Source of the DNA: Gammaproteobacteria bacterium
GTDB taxonomy: Bacteria > Pseudomonadota > Gammaproteobacteria > PIVX01
DNA length: 64,000 nucleotides
Assembly: GCA_003353785.1 (NCBI GenBank)
Contig: PIVX01000004.1
Span: 47,163-111,162 of the forward strand
Direction: 5' to 3'
A program made the position numbers and the translations under genes. The first letter of the stretch is position 1, and the number at the start of each line of letters is the position of its first letter. The notes under the pieces are model-generated. The model ran no database searches and was not told the DNA's origin. It was given only the letters and a program-made list of their open reading frames with translations. Below, one piece after another: positions 46,714 through 54,823 of the stretch.

Positions 46714-47388
46714 CTAACTAATTTTTAAAACGATCCCAATATCTAAGGAATGAAAATCAAAAGAAGACTCAAAGAAATTGTTGTTAGATATTTGTCCTAT
46801 TTTTTGTGAAAAGGTACTATGGTATCTATACTCTAAGCTTAGATCCCACATATGATTTAAAATTAAATGAAATCCTACTATAGCGTTATAGACAAAAACA
46901 TTATAAGATCTACTAAATCTCTGCGCTACTGGTTCTGTAGATAGATGGGAATAATAATTTAACTTCATGTGGCTGTAGCCAGCACCAACACCAAAAATAA
47001 ATTTAACAGGTCCATCTAATGTGAAGTCATAGTAACTATTTAAAATAAAATCTTTTAAATTACCAGTTGTGCTTTTATCATTGGTAAACTTTTTTACCGG
47101 GCTATTGTTTATTCGAGTATTAACTTCCTCAATGCGTGTTTTAGCAAAATGGCTAGTAAAAGCTACACGAAATTGATCAAATTTGTATCCTAGGCTTCCT
47201 CCAAAATTGTACGTTGGCTTAGAATGAAGCTCTAATAACCGTTGGCTTTTACTATCTTCAGTCTTCCCCAAAACAGTTAGTCCACCTTGTCCTTGAACAT
47301 ACCAGCCATATAAATAATTAAAGGAGAATGATGTAGCTGAATACATAAGAAAATTAATAAAACTAAATAAAATAAATAATTTCTTCAT
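46714..47388 (-). CDS. small (8-stranded type) outer-membrane beta-barrel protein
   Basis: 224 aa with a signal peptide, alternating hydrophobic strands and repeated G.G.GY blocks. Distant paralog of 54170-54823. Confidence 0.65.
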   Translation of the reverse strand: MKKLFILFSFINFLMYSATSFSFNYLYGWYVQGQGGLTVLGKTEDSKSQRLLELHSKPTYNFGGSLGYKFDQFRVAFTSHFAKTRIEEVNTRINNSPVKKFTNDKSTTGNLKDFILNSYYDFTLDGPVKFIFGVGAGYSHMKLNYYSHLSTEPVAQRFSRSYNVFVYNAIVGFHLILNHMWDLSLEYRYHSTFSQKIGQISNNNFFESSFDFHSLDIGIVLKIS

Positions 47389-47818: not shown

Positions 47819-48358
47819 ATGAAAAATCTAAGAACTATTGTAAACGTAGCTATAATGATATTTAGTGTAAATTGCATTTTTGCATTTCCTCCCATTTATG
47901 ATGCAGGAATATTTAATTTATTTGACAAAATGATTAAGAATAGCGTGCTCATAAACAGATTTCCTAGTTATATGAGAAAGGAATTTGAATCCAAAGAGGG
48001 TTTTTACACTATTAGTTTGTTGCAATCTAATGCTGATTTCAGATGTGCCGAAGGGAATAGTTATAATGTTAATTTGCTGATGGATAGTGGCTTATGTCGT
48101 GAAGAATGGGTATTAATGCATACGAATAGATTTAAAAAAATCTACAAGCAATCTTACGATAACCAAGATCGTTATTTTGAGATGGGATATTCTATTTACT
48201 TCGAAGAATCGTCGCTGCATTATACGTTTGTGTATCATATAGTAATTGATGAGATGAATATCTCAGATAATAAACAGTATCCAAAAGTTGGCAGAACAAT
48301 TGGTAGGATTGTCGCCAAAAGACAATTAGGAAGTAAATATGAATGTACAATTTTATAG
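47819..48358 (+). CDS. hypothetical exported protein
   Basis: 179 aa with signal-like MKNLRTIVNVAIMIFSVNCIFA. No motif recognised. Confidence 0.6.
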   Translation: MKNLRTIVNVAIMIFSVNCIFAFPPIYDAGIFNLFDKMIKNSVLINRFPSYMRKEFESKEGFYTISLLQSNADFRCAEGNSYNVNLLMDSGLCREEWVLMHTNRFKKIYKQSYDNQDRYFEMGYSIYFEESSLHYTFVYHIVIDEMNISDNKQYPKVGRTIGRIVAKRQLGSKYECTIL

Positions 48359-48404
48359 ATGTTATAGAGTTGAAAATTTCCAAAGCGTTTACGAGATGGA
48401 AGAT

Positions 48405-48452
48405 GATAAAAAGAGCATTTTTATCATTCACTTAGTGAATTAAGTGATTTTG
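48405..48452. terminator. two adjacent hairpins between convergent genes
   Basis: GATAAAAA-GAGCA-TTTTTATC (48405-48425) and TCACTTA-GTGAAT-TAAGTGA (48428-48447), followed by TTTT. Confidence 0.35.
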
Positions 48453-48470: not shown

Positions 48471-50501
48471 TTAATATTGTTTTTTCATATATACATCCAT
48501 ATTATCATCATATATTCTGATGTTGTCAAAAAAAGATTCTTGCCCTAAAGATGCTTCAAACGAGATTAGCTTATTTTTATTTTGGAGCTGTCCAACAACT
48601 TGGTAGTTGTCGCCCCATTTTGCCTTATAATGTACCATATTTCTATCGGGAGTTATTATATTCTTTAACAAATTAAATTCTTTTGTTAAACCTGTATTAA
48701 ATGAATGTTGGGGAAGAAAATCTTCCCAAGATACTCCTATTATATAGGATAATGGTATCTTAGGAAATAACCAGTAGAAGATAGCTGCATAAAAAGAATA
48801 TCCTTCCATGCGATAAAAAGAAAAAATATTATTTTTCTTTGAAAAAAATAATTTACAATTATCTGTTTGCAAGTTATTTTCTCCATTGAGACTAATACTT
48901 GGAGTGAAAGTAACAGTGAAAGACTTGTCAGTTTTTTTATCTAGGCAAAAATAACTTAAATTATGGCCTAGGACAAAATTAAATGATTCAGTTACTGAGG
49001 TTTCTCTAGGAATTACAAAAATTTCTTGTTTTTTGCGTAACTTGTTACTGTAAAAAAAATAGTTATTCGAATTTATATAAGGATAAAAACTAAAAGGAAT
49101 AGTATTTGAAAATAGATATAGAGAAGTTTGCATTTGGATATGAACGTGTGGAACTGGTGAATATCCAGAATTACCACATAGGCCTATTAATTCATTTTCA
49201 CAAACTATCTGTCCTGGGGCAAGAGTTATAGAATTTTGAGCCAAATGTCCTATGGTTATAAAATAACCATAACTGTTTTCAATAACTACATAATTACCAA
49301 ATTTATTTTCATAGTCCAAATTACCAATCTCATTATCAGGTAAATATGATACTAACTGTATTATTTTACCATTACACGGACTAAGAATTTCTTTACGGAA
49401 ACAATGATAGTCTTCTAGTATATATCCATCTCCAGTATGGGTTTTACCATGCCTTTCAACAACAAAGTCATATGCATATTGCCAAATTCCTTTATGAGTC
49501 CATTGATCATTAAAGCCTTGCCATACAACCCATGTTCCTTTAAAAGGAAAGTTAATACTAATGACATTAGAATCTGCTTTATTTGTGTTATGTAAGAAAG
49601 AATCTAAATTTAGTTCAGGGGTCTCTAAATTTATTTTTGGGATTAACCAGAAATTAAACTGTTTTAGTACATATAAAATACTTAATGAGGTGAAAACAAA
49701 AGGTAAAGTAAATATTGGGATATTGTATATTTTGTATAAGACTAATTCTGCGTTAAGAAACAAAACAGAAATACAAACGCCTAAAGATGCTATTATTACA
49801 CTACCTCTACTAGGAATTAAAAAAATACTTCCAAGATAAATGAAAACTAAAATATGATTAAAACCACCATATATATACCAAGATAGATAATTATTAAGTA
49901 ATAATGATATAAGCACACTTAGGTAATATCCTAAAAGACTAAAAATGAGTATAATTCTTGAGTGTAATAATAATAGTGCAGAGATTGCTATTCCTATGTA
50001 TAAATTTGGACAAAAAAAGATACTACTTAATGTAAGGAGAAAACCACTGATCCAATTAGCATGGTAATCGGTACTAAAACCAGTATAGTTATGAGAACAG
50101 AGCCACAATATTGTGCTTATCAAAGTGAAAGGAAGTGTAAGTGCTGGCAGATTAAAGTTATTATACAAAACATTTTCGATATTAAAGCTAACGATAAAGG
50201 TAAGTATCCCACAAATAACGGTTAATAAAACACTGGTAATGGATATAGGATAAATACTTCCAATGGTAAATCCTACCAGCAAGGAATTATAAGTATAACA
50301 CCCAAAAAATAAAAAATATCTATAGCAACTAATTGAAACTGCAAAATAATACGCTGAAAGCAGTGAAATAGAACCAAGAATAAATAATTTTGGGTAAAAT
50401 ATTAGTGTTGGTATGATTAATATTAGAATATTTTTATTTCTCAAAAAAATAATTTCTGAATAACTAGGAAATATTATTTTATTTATTAAGGTATATATCA
50501 T
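48471..50501 (-). CDS. fusion protein: urea-transporter (UT)-family membrane domain + M23 metallopeptidase domain + unassigned ~215-aa C-terminal domain
   Basis: UT-like internal duplication: YTYNSLLVGF...LPALTLPF and GGFNHILVF...IPIFTLPF. M23 motifs: WTHKG..YAYDF, GNYVVIEN..GHL and CGNSGYSPVPHVHIQ. ATGA overlap with the upstream decarboxylase gene. Confidence 0.8.
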   Translation of the reverse strand: MIYTLINKIIFPSYSEIIFLRNKNILILIIPTLIFYPKLFILGSISLLSAYYFAVSISCYRYFLFFGCYTYNSLLVGFTIGSIYPISITSVLLTVICGILTFIVSFNIENVLYNNFNLPALTLPFTLISTILWLCSHNYTGFSTDYHANWISGFLLTLSSIFFCPNLYIGIAISALLLLHSRIILIFSLLGYYLSVLISLLLNNYLSWYIYGGFNHILVFIYLGSIFLIPSRGSVIIASLGVCISVLFLNAELVLYKIYNIPIFTLPFVFTSLSILYVLKQFNFWLIPKINLETPELNLDSFLHNTNKADSNVISINFPFKGTWVVWQGFNDQWTHKGIWQYAYDFVVERHGKTHTGDGYILEDYHCFRKEILSPCNGKIIQLVSYLPDNEIGNLDYENKFGNYVVIENSYGYFITIGHLAQNSITLAPGQIVCENELIGLCGNSGYSPVPHVHIQMQTSLYLFSNTIPFSFYPYINSNNYFFYSNKLRKKQEIFVIPRETSVTESFNFVLGHNLSYFCLDKKTDKSFTVTFTPSISLNGENNLQTDNCKLFFSKKNNIFSFYRMEGYSFYAAIFYWLFPKIPLSYIIGVSWEDFLPQHSFNTGLTKEFNLLKNIITPDRNMVHYKAKWGDNYQVVGQLQNKNKLISFEASLGQESFFDNIRIYDDNMDVYMKKQY

Positions 50502-51856
50502 ATAGCAAGATGTTCAGGAATACTCTCTCGTCGAATTAGATCAGTAAGATCTTCCTTTCCTCTAATAAGATGTGGGTTTCGTTGAGTATCTATCATAACT
50601 ATTGCTGGTCTATACTCAATAAATTGCATCCATTGAGTAACATTATATGCTCCAACTGGAGATAAGATTATTTGGTCGTTTGTATTTAAGGGAGGTAATA
50701 ATATTCCACTATCTACAACATCTATGTTCATGCATAAAGGGCCGTACAGTACAGACATTTCCATATGTTCTTGGAATTGTCTATTTATCTCAATGTTAAA
50801 TTTATACCAAGTTGATGTGTATAATAAATTGATTCCTGCATCTATCACGTATCCCTTAGTTCCATCCGGCAATCTTTTAGTTGACTTAACTGTACTAATT
50901 AAAAAGCCTGCATCATCTATTAATGCTCTTCCATTTTCTAAAAAAATTTTGAGTCTTGGTTCACTTAACTTATTATCTTCTAAAGCCGAAATAATAGTTT
51001 TTGCAAAAACTTCCATATTAGGTACGATAATATTCTGATGATAATAACTATCTCTAAGTTTACTATTAGATGGTAATCCTCCACCAAGATCAATATACTT
51101 TATTTTGGCATATTTTTTTTCTTCTAGCATTTGTGAAAAGATGGTCATTTTTTTGACCTGGATCTTATATAAATTTGGGTCGAGAACAAAAGTTCCAATA
51201 TGGCAATGTAGCCCTACTAAATTTAATTTACTATGGAGTTTAATTTTTTTTACCGCAGCAAGAGATTCCCCTGATTCTAGATTAAAACCAAATCTAGACC
51301 ATAAAGGATATGTACCAGTATCTAAGTTAAGACGAATACCTACATCGATAATCTTATTTAGTTTATTGGCAATATGTGATATTTCTTCAATTTCTTCGAA
51401 GTTATCTATATGGATCTTAGCACCTTCTCGTATTGCTTTTACCAGGGATTGGTGAGATTTATTAGGGCCATTAAAGATGATTTTGTTTCCAGGAATTCCT
51501 ATATATCTTGCTTTATCGTATTCCATTTCAGAGACAACCTCTGCTAAGAATCCTTCTTGATAGAAAATAGAACAAATCGCATCAAGGTAGTTAGTTTTAT
51601 ATGACCATGCCATTTGAATATCAAAAATTGATGTCGAAAAGTACTTTTTATATTTTTGGATTTTTTTGCGAATAGTATCTTCGGAAAAAACAAATAATGG
51701 AGAACCAAACTTGTTAATTAATTCATTAATATCTACAGAATCTATATGAGTTCTTGTTTTAATAGATTGGTTGCTGTGCCATTCATTCCTATTGATACAT
51801 CCGGATTTAAGTTTAGTAATAATAGGTTTTTCATAAGAAAGAATTGGATCGTCCAT
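50498..51856 (-). CDS. fold-type-III PLP-dependent decarboxylase (Orn/DAP/Arg decarboxylase family)
   Basis: PLFVFSEDTI, the PLP-Lys context AWSYKTN, HCHIGT, DLGGGLP, ENGRALID, YGPLCMNIDV and PVGAYN. Confidence 0.85.
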   Translation of the reverse strand: MDDPILSYEKPIITKLKSGCINRNEWHSNQSIKTRTHIDSVDINELINKFGSPLFVFSEDTIRKKIQKYKKYFSTSIFDIQMAWSYKTNYLDAICSIFYQEGFLAEVVSEMEYDKARYIGIPGNKIIFNGPNKSHQSLVKAIREGAKIHIDNFEEIEEISHIANKLNKIIDVGIRLNLDTGTYPLWSRFGFNLESGESLAAVKKIKLHSKLNLVGLHCHIGTFVLDPNLYKIQVKKMTIFSQMLEEKKYAKIKYIDLGGGLPSNSKLRDSYYHQNIIVPNMEVFAKTIISALEDNKLSEPRLKIFLENGRALIDDAGFLISTVKSTKRLPDGTKGYVIDAGINLLYTSTWYKFNIEINRQFQEHMEMSVLYGPLCMNIDVVDSGILLPPLNTNDQIILSPVGAYNVTQWMQFIEYRPAIVMIDTQRNPHLIRGKEDLTDLIRRESIPEHLAI

Positions 51857-52936
51857 TTATGCCTCTTTATTTTCTGAATATAGAGATAATTCACCTTGTG
51901 TAAAAATATCATCTAAATCACTAATATTATAAATTGATTCTTCTATATGTCTAATAAATAGTTTCCCTGCAACATAACTAATTGGTTCATTTTTAGCATT
52001 ATATCCTAAGGCATTACAGACAATAATTTCAGGTAAATTCAATCCTAGCTGGGTAGAAAAATATATCCATGAAGGAAATCTAGGGTTAACTTCAATTAAA
52101 TAAATTTGTTCCCCAGAAGCTATACATTCTATTTCAAAAGGTCCTCGCCAATTAGTATACTCAACAAATTTTCTGGCAATATTATCTAACTTAGTATTAT
52201 GTATCGAAACACCTGTCCAAATTTTTCCAATCCCCGTAGTAGTAATTTTTCGCACACATGCTGAACCTAATATCTTACCTTCCCCATTTCCAATACCAAT
52301 TATATTTATTTCGTCTCCCACTATTTCATCTTGTATTATTACTGGATAACCATAGTTATAAATAATTTTATTTAGGTAAATTGTAACCTCTTGTAAAGAG
52401 GTTGTTTTATAACAACAGTAGCTATTGCCCTTTATTACTAGAGGGGGTGGTATTTTTTTTATTGCTGAATGTAATTGGTCGTAGGAAAAGATGATTTCTT
52501 GATTAGGGATTTTTGTATCAACTATTTTAGATAAATTTTCCAATTTTATTTTATTACATAATTCTAGCTGCGTCTCTGTAGGAGAAAATAAATAAATTCC
52601 TAATTCTTTTAATTGCTGATGATACCTAGCATAAAATAATAACTCACTATCTAAATTAGGTATAATAACGTTTAGATCAAACTTATTTTTTATATAAGAT
52701 AATCTTGCTAAAGTGTGCTTAGGATCTGATGAGGGATAAGGCATTAAACAGATTTTATCAAAGAAATTATTTAAAAAAACACCAGATTCCATTCCATCAT
52801 ATGCCAAGCCAATTATTCTATGTGGGTAGGCAAAAGAGCTTCGTAAACTTTTGGCAACGCCTACTCCAGGAGCTGGATTCTCACAAGAATTTATTCCAGT
52901 GATCCCAACACAGATATTCTCTCTATTAAAAGTCAT
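51857..52936 (-). CDS. ATP-grasp carboxylate-amine ligase
   Basis: 359 aa. PLVIKG, VIIQDEIVGDE and LIEVNPRFPSW are ATP-grasp blocks. There is no gap to either neighbouring gene. Confidence 0.8.
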   Translation of the reverse strand: MTFNRENICVGITGINSCENPAPGVGVAKSLRSSFAYPHRIIGLAYDGMESGVFLNNFFDKICLMPYPSSDPKHTLARLSYIKNKFDLNVIIPNLDSELLFYARYHQQLKELGIYLFSPTETQLELCNKIKLENLSKIVDTKIPNQEIIFSYDQLHSAIKKIPPPLVIKGNSYCCYKTTSLQEVTIYLNKIIYNYGYPVIIQDEIVGDEINIIGIGNGEGKILGSACVRKITTTGIGKIWTGVSIHNTKLDNIARKFVEYTNWRGPFEIECIASGEQIYLIEVNPRFPSWIYFSTQLGLNLPEIIVCNALGYNAKNEPISYVAGKLFIRHIEESIYNISDLDDIFTQGELSLYSENKEA

Positions 52937-53182
52937 CTATAATATTCCTAAAAATCTCATATTATTTATAAAATCTGTTAAATCAGCATCTATGGTTTTT
53001 TTATCTAAGGAAAATTGTTCAGCAATGTTATTGGCAATGTCGTTAATGGAATATTGTTTATTTATCATGTTAATTATCTCTATTCCTATACAGTTAGTAA
53101 AATAACTGCTACCTGTATGTTTATCGAAAATAAATCCACTATTACTGAGAGAAAGTTTAGACAAGTTTGTGTAGTTATCCAT
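52937..53182 (-). CDS. PqqD-family small protein (RiPP-recognition-element-like)
   Basis: 81 aa. GFIFDKHTGSSYFTNCIGIEIINMINKQYSINDIANNIAEQFSLDKKTIDADLTDFINNMRFLGIL follows the PqqD pattern (..g..y.lN..g..i...l....t..ei...l...y.......D...F...L...g.l). Confidence 0.7.
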   Translation of the reverse strand: MDNYTNLSKLSLSNSGFIFDKHTGSSYFTNCIGIEIINMINKQYSINDIANNIAEQFSLDKKTIDADLTDFINNMRFLGIL

Positions 53183-53262: not shown

Positions 53263-53991
53263 ATGAATAAAATAAAAAAGTTAGTGCTTTTAATTTTTTC
53301 TATACTCTATAGCTTTAATATTTATGCATTTAACTGGGATAAGACGTATATTCAAAGCAGCTATGGGGGAGATTATAAAATAACTACTAAAAAATCTAGA
53401 GGTACTTTTACTATATCTGATTCTAGTAGTTGGAAGTTTGGAGAGAACTATTTCTTTATTGAAGCTGCAGATTTTGTTCATGATGAACTTTTATTGTATG
53501 GGGAATTTGATCCTTCCCTAAGTTTAGGAAAAATATTTAATACAAAAGTTGGAGCAGGCCCAATTGTAGACACATTAATAACGACCAGGTTTTATGCTGA
53601 TGAGTTGAATGCTAGAGAAACTGATTATGGGCTCATGTGGTACTGGGATTTTCATAGAATTTTTCAGTATGTTTCCACCAAAATTGTATATCGCAAAGTT
53701 TTAAATGTGCCAGGGAATGCTGTTGGCCTTCAACTTAATTCTCAAATTAATATTCATAAATACATTTTTTCTACGATTTTTGTTGATTGGACACCAAAGA
53801 GTCAATCGTTAGCACATAACAGAGGGAAAAATCTCTTCGGTAGAATAGAACTGTTTGGTGATGTTGGGAGTATCATTTATAGACCTTATCATATATATCT
53901 TGGTTGTGGCTTTTCTTATTGGAGAAATAAACTAGGTGTACAAGGAACTCATGAGCGGGTTTTATATGGAGTAATCAGATTTTATATATAG
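53263..53991 (+). CDS. Tsx/OmpK-like outer-membrane channel
   Basis: Signal peptide, then W.KTYIQSSYGGDYK..T.S.SSSWKFGENYFFIE..........LYGEFDPSLSLGKIF. Terminal aromatic-rich strand ..VLYGVIRFYI. The assignment comes from recalled family pattern. Confidence 0.55.
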   Translation: MNKIKKLVLLIFSILYSFNIYAFNWDKTYIQSSYGGDYKITTKKSRGTFTISDSSSWKFGENYFFIEAADFVHDELLLYGEFDPSLSLGKIFNTKVGAGPIVDTLITTRFYADELNARETDYGLMWYWDFHRIFQYVSTKIVYRKVLNVPGNAVGLQLNSQINIHKYIFSTIFVDWTPKSQSLAHNRGKNLFGRIELFGDVGSIIYRPYHIYLGCGFSYWRNKLGVQGTHERVLYGVIRFYI

Positions 53992-54169: not shown

Positions 54170-54823
54170 TTAGGCAACTATGAATTTAAAGCCTATGTTA
54201 ATATTATAAGGAGATATGAACACATGTTTGTAATCTTTATTACCAAATTTTGTCAATGTTACTTCTGTAGCTCCTAAAAATTTGTATTCTAAAAATATAC
54301 TCATAACATTATTCATGTGGTATTGTGCCCCAGCTAGAAATTGAAAACCAAATGCATTAGTAGATTCATTAGTTGTTTGAGCTGTATTATTTATTTTATT
54401 ATTGAAATTGCTTTTAAAGTGAGCCCAACCGATACCAATACCTAGATAAGGTGTTATATTTGGATCTATTTCAACGTCATAAATTCCATTTAACATAACA
54501 TTTATCATCGATCCCTCTTTATTGTTAGATTTGTCTGATAGAGTTTTATTTTTTTGGGTAAATTTAGCTTCAGCTACTTTTGCGCGTAAATAGTTGAACT
54601 CTAATTCAGTTCTAAACATATCTAGTTTTTGTCCTACACTACCACCAATATTAAAAGATTTGTCGTATTCTAAATCTATTTTTGTTCCTGTTTGATTTTG
54701 GTCTTGAGAATTGATCCCACTAAATCCGACCTTTACAGTTACGTAAGTGTTATCCATACCGGCACTTGCAAAAGCACTGAAACCTAACATAGCTAATACC
54801 AATATACGGGATCTATTTTTCAT
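54170..54823 (-). CDS. small (8-stranded type) outer-membrane beta-barrel protein
   Basis: 217 aa with signal peptide MKNRSRILVLAMLGFSAFASA, G.G.G blocks, and terminal ..NINIGFKFIVA. Confidence 0.65.
   Translation of the reverse strand: MKNRSRILVLAMLGFSAFASAGMDNTYVTVKVGFSGINSQDQNQTGTKIDLEYDKSFNIGGSVGQKLDMFRTELEFNYLRAKVAEAKFTQKNKTLSDKSNNKEGSMINVMLNGIYDVEIDPNITPYLGIGIGWAHFKSNFNNKINNTAQTTNESTNAFGFQFLAGAQYHMNNVMSIFLEYKFLGATEVTLTKFGNKDYKHVFISPYNINIGFKFIVA

Follow-up and report, generated by a model that had tools for sequence, protein, structure and literature searches.

The DNA analysed here is a stretch of 64,000 nt, referred to below as the window. On its minus strand, positions 48471..50501 hold an open frame that runs uninterrupted for 676 codons up to its stop. 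The encoded product, here called UT-M23, is a three-domain membrane protein in which a complete urea-transporter (UT)-type pore is joined to an M23 zinc peptidase with a full catalytic site and to a beta-rich C-terminal domain (C-domain) specific to the family. Its gene is the last of a four-gene operon, read on the same strand, in which it is preceded by genes for a small PqqD-like protein (81 aa; 52937..53182), an ATP-grasp ligase (359 aa; 51857..52936) and a FigC/FslC-like PLP decarboxylase of the alanine-racemase fold (452 aa; 50498..51856). The ATG of the UT-M23 gene overlaps the stop codon of the decarboxylase gene as ATGA, and the remaining junctions leave no gap. These overlapping and zero-gap junctions show that UT-M23 is co-transcribed with the three upstream genes; probably, its translation is coupled to theirs as well.

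The three-part architecture had been proposed in an earlier note, made from the same DNA, which named a sequencing frameshift as the finding that would undo it. The architecture is upheld by Pfam matches to UT and Peptidase_M23 and by an AlphaFold2 (AF2) model of the whole protein (pLDDT 87.6, pTM 0.80), whose confidence is maintained across the domain junctions. More than 120 database proteins are colinear with UT-M23 over 87-99% of its length. This shared architecture of approximately 690 aa recurs in unrelated assemblies, complete genomes included, and occurs in at least 436 loci of species-representative genomes from many diderm phyla. Joining of two or three genes by a frameshift or by the assembly was rejected on the strength of these homologues, loci and confident junctions, and has practically no chance of being right. 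The same numbers contradict the description of the architecture as unusual. It is, in fact, already catalogued: the combination of UT and M23 is mentioned by Cagliani et al. 2026 (PMC12998343). This was the sole mention in our literature searches, which found neither a described function for the protein nor a paper on its gene cassette. What is new here is the operon context, a second type of gene cluster, the probable placement of the peptidase and C-domain in the cytoplasm and the altered ladder residues in the UT filter.

The UT fold occupies residues 1-285 (49647..50501, minus strand). The Pfam UT profile (PF03253), which has 292 positions, aligns with residues 9-278 from its position 3 to position 290 (E 1.3e-40), so that the profile search supports the fold assigned to this region over nearly the whole profile. 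Both repeat motifs noticed at the outset are present, with YNSLLVGF (71-78) and LPALTLPF (118-125) in one half and GFNHILVF (213-220) and IPIFTLPF (261-268) in the other. The two inverted six-helix halves (Pa, T1a-T5a; Pb, T1b-T5b) are offset by approximately 142 residues. When the AF2 model was searched with Foldseek, solved urea transporters (8xd9, 3me1, 4ezc) were returned at E 1e-8 to 1e-10, with matches to dvUT, UT-A and UT-B. Profile coverage and structural matches thus agree on the ten-helix, two-fold inverted-repeat UT fold. The curated model for bacterial urea transporters (TIGR03441, Yut) scores 70.1 bits, well short of its cut-off of 274.6.

Compared with the UT/SLC14 proteins (dvUT of Desulfovibrio vulgaris, Yut, UT-A, UT-B), UT-M23 has the same two-repeat fold and carries the NxxLVG and LPxxTLPF signatures in both halves. 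Mapping of the selectivity filter showed conservation of the Leu/Thr/Leu/Thr constriction at Sm (L75, T122, L218, T265) and, in the UT-M23 family, of most positions at So and Si. The pore-mouth ladder differs. On the cytoplasmic side, the Si Gln is replaced by Glu, at residue 16 in the present protein and in 26 of 38 family sequences; on the periplasmic side, the So Gln/Glu is Ser160 here and Ala in 26 of the 38. As far as the alignment goes, then, the narrow middle of the filter appears conserved and two polar ladder residues appear changed in most members. UT-M23 further departs from UT/SLC14 in bearing an extra 390-aa, predicted cytoplasmic enzyme module and in lying within a biosynthesis-type operon rather than beside urease.

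The M23 metallopeptidase domain spans residues ~313-478 (49068..49565, minus strand). Pfam Peptidase_M23 (PF01551) matches residues 397-458 with 37.5 bits (gathering score 28.7), and M23 chains in the PDB match by sequence over about the same interval. In the AF2 model, the domain retrieves lysostaphin, ShyA and LytM through Foldseek at E of about 1e-5 to 1e-6, as well as Csd1 and DipM. We propose H336, D345 and H454 as zinc ligands and H419 and H452 as catalytic residues. The metal ligands pointed out in the earlier note were correctly placed, and all five residues are invariant in 38 of 38 diverse homologues. All 85 full-length family members carry W[TS]H-x8-D[FL] and PHxH, and a CGNSG loop lies at 442-446. 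The longer His-to-Asp spacing, which had been likened to that of LasA, is real, being fixed at 8 residues in all 85 members; it departs from the HxxxD of M23B and also from LasA, where the spacing is 12. Relative to the known M23 enzymes (LytM, lysostaphin, ShyA, LasA), UT-M23 thus has the same fold, with the HxH, the third catalytic His and the His...Asp pair invariant. It differs from them in being predicted to hold its peptidase in the cytoplasm, fused behind a channel, and in lacking a peptidoglycan-binding domain. The best NCBIfam peptidase models (MepM, ShyA, Pgp3) give 22-24 bits against cut-offs of 341-700.

Between the pore and the peptidase lies a linker (residues 286-312; 49566..49646, minus strand), predicted to be cytoplasmic, which AF2 folds as a single helix (295-307). 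It is rich in Lys and Arg across the family (4.55 per 31 residues) and contains an invariant Pro295-Glu296 within the family consensus TPEETLD. The C-domain follows the peptidase (residues ~479-676; 48474..49067, minus strand). This region, in which no nameable motif had been recognized, is likewise blank in Pfam and NCBIfam, and AF2 folds it confidently as a beta-rich domain (pLDDT 87) with conserved residues G567, P583, W592, D594 and P597. A Foldseek search of the PDB with the C-domain yielded weak neighbours: LolA (E 2.4e-3), OlmO/OssO and FABP, with TM scores of 0.26-0.38. None reached E 1e-3, so that assignment to a LolA- or lipocalin-like barrel is weak. RseB and LprG were also among the weak structural neighbours. 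A library-wide search located the C-domain in UT-M23 family members, in fragments and in TPR fusions; the only other matches were a few short ones lacking a family match and two repeat-like long proteins.

The side of the membrane faced by the peptidase was examined from the charge distribution and from natural gene fusions. Across the family, Lys and Arg together number 4.6 in the linker behind the UT fold and 2.6 in the stretch at the N-terminus, compared to 0.9 per 25 residues for the loop between the repeats and 0.05 for loop 204-213. In the AF2 model, the UT fold is not followed by any extra membrane helix. Four natural fusions join UT-M23 and its C-domain to a TPR protein; in these, the C-domain is followed by an Arg-rich stretch and a hydrophobic signal-anchor before the TPR portion begins. 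Based on the charge distribution and the four fusions, the M23 domain and C-domain most likely face the cytoplasm. The extracytoplasmic location that is typical, if not defining, of characterized M23 enzymes is therefore not what these data indicate.

The decarboxylase (PF02784 and PF00278) has N-citrylornithine decarboxylase FigC (7kh2) as its best solved relative (E 4.6e-62; LysA, 1.1e-44). All 68 family sequences carry GPLCMNID, a motif that reads GPSCMQHD in FigC and GGLCESSD in LysA. The C-M-N substrate loop thus resembles that of FigC (C-M-Q) and not that of LysA (C-E-S), and the arginine with which LysA holds the distal carboxylate is absent from the family. Against the curated FslC model the protein scores 248.3 bits, below the cut-off of 500, and its partner is an ATP-grasp enzyme in place of the NIS synthetase that accompanies FigC/FslC. 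FigC, SbnH, AcsE, MccE and BtrK each act on an amino acid that has been conjugated before it is decarboxylated (PMC7857480). The ATP-grasp protein (PF02655, PF15632) belongs to the branch of carbamoyl-phosphate synthase and biotin carboxylase. PRK12767-type models match it, and in the PDB its profile retrieves 2pn1 (2.5e-17) as well as the carbamoyl-phosphate synthase large chain, pyruvate carboxylase, PurD and PylC.

The first gene of the operon encodes a protein with the peptide-binding, RRE-type fold of PqqD (PF05402, 31.6 bits; gathering score 23.4), and 50 loci encode a conserved orthologue of 78 aa ahead of the ATP-grasp gene. A role as a LysW-type carrier was rejected, as the C-terminus is hydrophobic and has no conserved acidic residue. 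The presence of PqqD suggests a peptide substrate. However, an all-against-all comparison of ORFs of 18-90 aa within the clusters and 1.5 kb to either side yielded only PqqD and antisense shadows, and among tiny ORFs (5-40 aa) within 260 nt upstream of PqqD none was conserved across loci. A precursor peptide gene, as expected of a RiPP system, was thus not found in or beside the cluster. One lineage-specific 30-aa ORF is common to loci L061 and L075 and has no counterpart elsewhere.

Neither the outer-membrane barrel nor the TPR protein that accompany UT-M23 in other genomes was found in the window (HMM search of all ORFs of at least 70 aa across the 64 kb), and comparison of two flanking signal-peptide proteins (242 aa and 179 aa) with these partners by hhalign was negative. 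The window therefore holds a minimal, four-gene form of the cassette. A PADLOC search found no match to anti-phage defence systems. Scanning this AT-rich DNA for promoters and terminators was uninformative, promoter-like sites being fewer than in shuffled sequence.

A survey of UT-M23 genes and their neighbours, as suggested in the earlier note, revealed a widespread family with a recurrent ligase/decarboxylase operon. The order PqqD, ATP-grasp, decarboxylase, UT-M23, barrel, TPR is found in about two thirds of 85 loci. It occurs in Campylobacterota, Aquificota, Thermodesulfobacteriota and Gammaproteobacteria, and also in Gemmatimonadota, Verrucomicrobiota, Chlamydiales and others, many of the carriers being free-living autotrophs. 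The association of the peptidase with the operon was confirmed in metagenomes, starting from the ATP-grasp gene: 63 of the 65 loci continue with the decarboxylase gene, and 44 of the 48 that are long enough to show it go on to UT-M23. Two loci have the three enzyme genes and no adjacent UT-M23. The barrel and the periplasmic TPR protein, which come after UT-M23 in most other diderm bacteria, carry signal peptides and are absent from loci of Actinomycetota and Armatimonadota. The barrel is small (~280 aa); its profile found no match in the PDB, and in Pfam 4 of 25 members gave weak OMP_b-brl matches.

A second type of cluster retains UT-M23 and the TPR protein, and usually the barrel, together with a different set of enzymes. 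Its decarboxylase is a non-homologous, fold-I Orn/Lys/Arg decarboxylase (PF01276, E about 1e-71), its ATP-grasp protein is of a different kind (PRK06524, E 1e-144), and an additional enzyme is a C45 Ntn amidase/acyltransferase (PF03417, E 1e-36). PqqD was not found in these clusters, and a search for a hidden PqqD-like domain by hhalign was also negative. To judge from the predicted enzymes, the theme common to both cluster types is decarboxylation of basic amino acids combined with amide-bond chemistry. The occurrence of PqqD, with its hint of a peptide, sits ill with the lack of a conserved precursor gene and with the PqqD-free second type. For the same two reasons, removal of a leader in the RiPP sense gains no direct support. 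The probable cytoplasmic side of the peptidase fits the suggestion that it acts at the membrane on the operon product, and speaks against a function in peptidoglycan cleavage.

Altogether, UT-M23 is probably the membrane end of a small-molecule pathway and not a cell-wall enzyme. Our tentative reading, which we regard as quite possible, is that it combines an inner-membrane pore with a cytoplasmic amidase for the maturation or release of a small, amine-terminated amide metabolite. The ATP-grasp enzyme would link an ornithine-, lysine- or diamino-type amino acid through an amide bond to a carboxylate, which might belong to a small acid or to a PqqD-bound peptide. The FigC-like enzyme would then strip the alpha-carboxyl group from the conjugated amino acid, leaving a product of the N-acyl-diamine type. 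The M23 domain and C-domain, presumably suspended at the cytoplasmic mouth of the pore, could cleave the mature compound off, or free it from, a precursor or carrier; alternatively, they might destroy a wrong or toxic compound. The narrow UT-type pore, which appears to have acquired an acidic residue at its cytoplasmic entry, would then let the compound or a fragment of it pass the inner membrane. Where present, the TPR protein and the barrel might conduct it through the outer envelope or place it there. UT pores are passive conduits sized for molecules about as large as urea; an N-acyl-diamine may exceed that size, and the channel offers no energy coupling for export. Moreover, we know of no precedent for an M23 enzyme acting as a cytoplasmic small-molecule amidase. 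The wider proposal, a phylum-spanning envelope pathway in which the UT fold is the inner-membrane conduit for a new class of amine/amide metabolites and M23 a cytoplasmic maturation or gating amidase, is more doubtful.

Characterized systems offer partial parallels. In the rhizoferrin pathway of Francisella (FigA/FigC, or FslA/FslC), the decarboxylase is the closest solved relative of the present one and has the C-M-x loop in common with it, and the logic of ligating before decarboxylating fits the gene order of the cassette. In the cassette, however, an ATP-grasp enzyme stands in for the NIS synthetase as ligase, UT-M23 takes the position of the MFS pump at the membrane, and a TonB-type receptor is lacking. 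The butirosin module (BtrI/BtrJ/BtrK) presents the same trio of small protein, ATP-grasp ligase and alanine-racemase-fold decarboxylase, the BtrK-type enzyme acting on a tethered amino acid. The small protein of the cassette differs in having a PqqD fold instead of an acyl-carrier fold, with a hydrophobic C-terminus devoid of a conserved acidic attachment residue. Like the PCAT (C39-ABC) transporters, UT-M23 is predicted to place a peptidase on the cytoplasmic face of a product conduit, and its operon encodes a PqqD-type peptide-binding protein. Yet UT-M23 lacks both an ABC ATPase and the C39 fold, its pore is far narrower than a peptide exporter, and a precursor gene was not found.

We also considered that UT-M23 might still be a true channel for urea, ammonia or small amides, with the M23 domain and C-domain as a regulatory or metabolic addition to an operon for nitrogen or polyamine metabolism. 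The UT domain would then pass a urea-like by-product or substrate released or consumed by the operon. The complete UT fold, with both signatures and the conserved Sm constriction, is what such a channel would have; both ATP-grasp types belong to the carbamoyl-phosphate-synthase/biotin-carboxylase branch, which activates bicarbonate or carbamate, and both cluster types encode decarboxylases for basic amino acids. We consider this reading unlikely in view of the low score against the curated urea-transporter model (70 bits, 274.6 being required) and the change, in most members, of the polar ladder residues that define So and Si. Urease, agmatinase, allophanate hydrolase and a biotin carrier are absent from every cluster examined, and the invariant peptidase site and the barrel and TPR partners would be left unexplained. 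Alternatively, the flow could be inward: barrel and TPR protein would capture a peptide-like or amide compound, the UT domain admit it, and M23 hydrolyse it, leaving pieces for the decarboxylase and ligase to convert. Channels are naturally bidirectional, a peptidase at the cytoplasmic exit would suit immediate hydrolysis, and an outer-membrane barrel with a periplasmic protein looks like an uptake chain. To judge from a GC content of about 30%, from Rickettsia-Adr-like barrels and from proteins that are singletons at 90% identity, the organism of the window moreover seems to be a reduced, host-associated one. Such salvage is decidedly unlikely, given that ATP-consuming ligases and FigC-type decarboxylases are biosynthetic in all characterized cases, that no periplasmic binding protein or energized importer accompanies the cassette, and that it also occurs in many free-living autotrophs.

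Two further readings concern cell-wall cleavage and polymer export. Known M23 enzymes are extracytoplasmic, cleave peptide bonds of the peptidoglycan or elastin type and normally serve as cell-wall hydrolases; several databases annotate UT-M23 accordingly, as a murein endopeptidase. It could then be a periplasmic enzyme anchored by its UT domain, with the TPR protein and barrel as envelope partners and the operon enzymes supplying a diamine attached to peptidoglycan. This agrees with MepM, ShyA and Pgp3 being the best NCBIfam peptidase matches, with the extracytoplasmic location of the weak C-domain neighbours LolA, RseB and LprG, and with the signal peptides of the TPR protein and barrel. Those NCBIfam scores are tiny, however. 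The positive-inside pattern places both termini of the UT domain in the cytoplasm, with no further membrane helix to follow, and in four independent fusions a signal-anchor parts the C-domain from the periplasmic TPR. With the M23 domain and C-domain in the cytoplasm a role as murein hydrolase is unlikely, and we regard the murein reading as improbable. Systems that secrete polymers, such as AlgK/AlgE, PgaA and BcsC, usually rely at the outer membrane on a TPR protein and a partner beta-barrel. By analogy, the ATP-grasp enzyme and decarboxylase might build a linear polyamide or polyamine-amide chain, to be trimmed or released by M23 and exported through the UT slot and the TPR/barrel pair. The TPR protein weakly matches PgaA-, BcsC- and PrsT-type models, and ATP-grasp enzymes can polymerize, as does cyanophycin synthetase, which is among the matches of the ATP-grasp profile. 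The TPR matches are generic, however, and the barrel is small; no synthase-type membrane enzyme is present, no evidence points to a polymer, and the window form lacks both outer components. Polymer export is therefore very improbable.

Returning to the proposed small-molecule pathway, its interest lies in the two folds that it brings together. UT and M23 are well studied, each with one accepted job, namely permeation of urea and cleavage of the cell wall. A family that joins them in hundreds of species, with the peptidase apparently cytoplasmic, suggests a second job for both. The strict pairing of a ligase with a decarboxylase for conjugated amino acids, reinvented with non-homologous enzymes, points to a common, undescribed small metabolite, which is probably polyamine-like and handled at the envelope. 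The current annotations "urea transporter" and "peptidoglycan DD-metalloendopeptidase" are probably misleading. Several cultured bacteria carry the cassette (Nitratiruptor sp. YY09-18, Thermosulfuriphilus ammonigenes, Thermodesulfatator autotrophicus, Hydrogenothermus marinus, Psychromonas aquimarina), which makes it directly accessible to experiment; T. autotrophicus and Nitratiruptor have the six-gene form and P. aquimarina the second cluster type. If the proposal is true, this would be the first non-urea role of the UT fold and the first cytoplasmic, non-peptidoglycan role of M23.

The open reading frame at 48471-50501 on the minus strand comprises 676 open codons and encodes a protein, here UT-M23, in which a urea-transporter (UT) fold is followed by an M23 peptidase and a beta-rich C-terminal domain (C-domain). 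The Pfam urea-transporter domain, PF03253, is complete (residues 9-278, profile positions 3-290 of 292, E 1.3e-40). Both motif pairs that an earlier note had quoted for a two-fold repeat were located (residues 71-78 with 118-125 and 213-220 with 261-268) in two six-helix halves offset by approximately 142 residues. The M23 domain proposed in the same note was recovered at residues 397-458, scoring 37.5 bits against a Pfam gathering score of 28.7, and its putative zinc-ligand and catalytic residues H336, D345, H419, H452 and H454 show no variation in the family alignment. The motifs W[TS]H-x8-D[FL] and PHxH are present in 85/85 full-length members; the long His-Asp spacing, perceived in the note in a single protein, is a fixed trait of the family. 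An AlphaFold2 model made with 38 homologues as input is confident over the whole length (pLDDT 87.6, pTM 0.80) and resembles solved urea transporters (8xd9, 3me1, 4ezc) as well as the M23 enzymes lysostaphin, ShyA, LytM and Csd1.

The final ~200 residues, in which the note could name no motif, likewise gave no family match in Pfam or NCBIfam. Modelled on its own (pLDDT 87), the C-domain has structural neighbours that are all weak (TM 0.26-0.38), namely LolA (E 2.4e-3), the OlmO/OssO spirocyclases, FABPs, LprG and RseB; that it forms a small barrel for binding a ligand is no more than a plausible guess. Among 1.84 billion representative proteins, the C-domain was found in the UT-M23 family, in family fragments and in TPR fusions, the other matches being two long, repeat-like proteins and a few short ones that match no family.

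In a database search UT-M23 had 170 relatives, the best 120 of which are ~660-760 aa each, all with both Pfam domains, at 81-99% query coverage and 30-42% identity. A scan of a single genome for each species identified at least 436 UT-M23 loci in Gammaproteobacteria, Campylobacterota, Aquificota, Thermodesulfobacteriota, Gemmatimonadota, Verrucomicrobiota, Planctomycetota, Calditrichota, Ignavibacteriota, Chlamydiales and others. Recurrence of the architecture in these 120 relatives and 436 or more loci rules out a frameshift or assembly artefact, an origin that we consider next to impossible, and an arrangement initially called unusual proves not to be rare. It is mentioned once in the literature, with no function given (Cagliani et al. 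2026, PMC12998343). The UT-M23 of the window is a divergent member of this catalogued, functionally uncharacterised family.

Published filter residues were transferred to the pore via alignment with human UT-A2. The quartet of the central Sm site is kept (L75, T122, mostly Ser in the family, L218 and T265), as are Y71, L121, I17, I161, F163 and, conservatively, F264. Of the polar ladder residues, the cytoplasmic-side Gln is replaced by Glu in 26/38 sequences and the periplasmic-side Gln/Glu by Ala, again in 26/38. The pore is probably still narrow and of UT type, with a specificity that has probably shifted.

Over the family, K+R residues average 2.6 in the N-terminal stretch and 4.6 in the linker after the UT fold; the long inter-repeat loop, which is extracellular in mammalian UTs (PMC4357013), has 0.9 per ~25 residues, and loop 204-213 has 0.05. 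The model contains no hydrophobic helix after the UT fold. Four independent natural fusions (database proteins P0076, P0144, P0128 and P0154) join UT-M23, including its C-domain, to one or two TPR copies. All four retain, between C-domain and TPR, a hydrophobic signal-anchor with preceding Arg-rich sequence, which places the C-domain and the periplasmic TPR on opposite membrane sides. As to the side that the M23 domain faces, a check suggested in the earlier note, we infer from the K+R pattern and the fusions that M23 and C-domain would be cytoplasmic, which counts against the database label of murein endopeptidase. The fusions also provide Rosetta-stone evidence that UT-M23 and the TPR protein cooperate.

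In the window, a PqqD-like gene abuts an ATP-grasp ligase gene, which abuts a PLP decarboxylase gene whose stop codon overlaps the UT-M23 start as ATGA. In Nitratiruptor, Thermosulfuriphilus and Thiomargarita, these four genes are followed by those for a ~280-aa protein with an aromatic C-terminal residue and weak OMP_b-brl matches (the barrel) and a ~200-aa TPR protein, both with signal peptides; this six-gene order prevails among 85 loci. When metagenome loci were entered via the ATP-grasp gene, the decarboxylase came next in 63/65, and UT-M23 next in 44/48 of sufficient length, the exceptions being disrupted clusters or cases with UT-M23 missing nearby. Coupling of the cassette to UT-M23 is strong, not absolute. 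No barrel or TPR homologue occurs within the 64-kb window, and both are also absent from Actinomycetota and Armatimonadota loci. Neither a conserved precursor peptide gene in or beside the clusters across loci nor a defence-system signature for the cassette was found.

Individual loci vary. Two metagenomic loci (L099 6768-9407, L145 395-3064) carry PqqD, ATP-grasp and decarboxylase without adjoining UT-M23. Near a solitary UT-M23 in a Persephonella MAG lies a class-III, acetylornithine-aminotransferase-like gene (L014 5904-7067, PF00202, E 3e-117), with ligase and decarboxylase absent nearby. In the complete genome of Thermosulfuriphilus ammonigenes (L003 5584-6622, L004 2016-3054) the ATP-grasp is called as 176-aa and 171-aa ORFs; either the gene is truly split or frameshifted, or the sequence is in error. 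At L012 4469-5590, PqqD and the 5' portion of the ATP-grasp gene are partly tandem-duplicated upstream of an intact operon. The related Ignavibacteriota loci L061 (2149-2238) and L075 (5046-5138) share a 30-aa ORF ~170 nt upstream of PqqD (MNQNISVEVFEGNGFSEIMDGASLEEYLES, MMNQETTAEVFDGNGYSEIMDIRSMEEYLVH); missing from every other locus, it could encode a peptide particular to this lineage or simply be conserved because the two are close relatives.

The top solved relative of the decarboxylase is Francisella N-citrylornithine decarboxylase (7kh2, E 4.6e-62), as compared with E 1.1e-44 for LysA and ~1e-19 for BtrK. Its substrate loop reads GPLCMNID in 63/68 family members (C-M-N in 68/68), whereas FigC has GPSCMQHD and LysA GGLCESSD, and the arginine with which LysA binds the distal carboxylate is missing. 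By these residues the enzyme resembles FigC, not LysA; at 248 bits against the 500 required by the model, it was rejected as an FslC orthologue. FigC, SbnH, AcsE, MccE and BtrK belong together as enzymes whose amino acid substrates are already joined to a larger scaffold when decarboxylated (Li et al. 2020, PMC7857480). By analogy, ATP-grasp ligation would come first and decarboxylation second, giving an N-acyl-diamine-type product. The profile of the ATP-grasp ligase lies nearest to PurD, PylC and enzymes of the carbamoyl-phosphate-synthase-like and biotin-carboxylase-like kinds.

A second cluster type, found in Psychromonas, Shewanella, a Moraxellaceae genome and others, has UT-M23, usually the barrel, and TPR, after which come the genes of three other enzymes. 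The decarboxylase, ~890 aa long, is of the fold-I Orn/Lys/Arg type (PF01276). The ATP-grasp, of ~500 aa (NCBIfam PRK06524, E 1e-144), is no more than a distant relative of the window ligase. Conserved immediately 3' of this ATP-grasp gene is that for a 325-aa Ntn hydrolase of the peptidase-C45/AAT type (L079 15051-16028, L044 15748-16725, L081 15073-16053). No PqqD-like domain is detectable in this type. The Shewanella locus has an additional barrel and TPR pair 3' of the Ntn hydrolase. Since the enzymes are swapped for non-homologous ones, the constants become visible: a basic-type amino acid is decarboxylated, an amide is formed with ATP, an amide is hydrolysed, and the membrane module stays.

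The operon is flanked by two plus-strand genes with signal-peptide-like N-termini, one convergent (47819-48358, 179 aa) and one divergent (53263-53991, 242 aa); their products have no match in Pfam or NCBIfam and no profile similarity to the usual barrel and TPR partners. A 79-aa antisense ORF overlapping the former (48192-48431, minus strand) is probably spurious. Two minus-strand genes for small outer-membrane beta-barrels (OMP_b-brl) bracket the region, at 46714-47388 and at 54170-54823 (Rickettsia adhesin Adr model, E 3e-15), a hint of a host-associated organism. Housekeeping neighbours include Hda, a PgsA-like gene, glutaminase A, cydAB, yihY and aspartate aminotransferase. GC is ~29-35% along the whole window (1-64000) and cumulative GC skew climbs steadily, which makes the plus strand the probable leading strand, with the operon on the other one. 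Within a 15-billion-protein collection, the window proteins remain singletons at the 90% identity level.

Several functions can be weighed for UT-M23. A true urea or ammonia channel bearing an attached enzyme seems unlikely; the filter quartet is kept, and the score with the curated urea-transporter model is far under threshold. A route for uptake or salvage is rather improbable. A periplasmic murein hydrolase, in line with the database label, is quite improbable, the K+R pattern and the four fusions indicating a cytoplasmic M23, and polymer export has a slight chance. The remaining probability goes to explanations outside those considered here. A literature search on the cassette found no paper, and its system-level picture seems to be new to the literature. 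We tentatively favor a reading in which UT-M23 would combine an inner-membrane pore with a cytoplasmic maturation or release amidase, in the pathway of a small amine-terminated amide metabolite of which the barrel and the TPR protein would form an optional outer-envelope leg.
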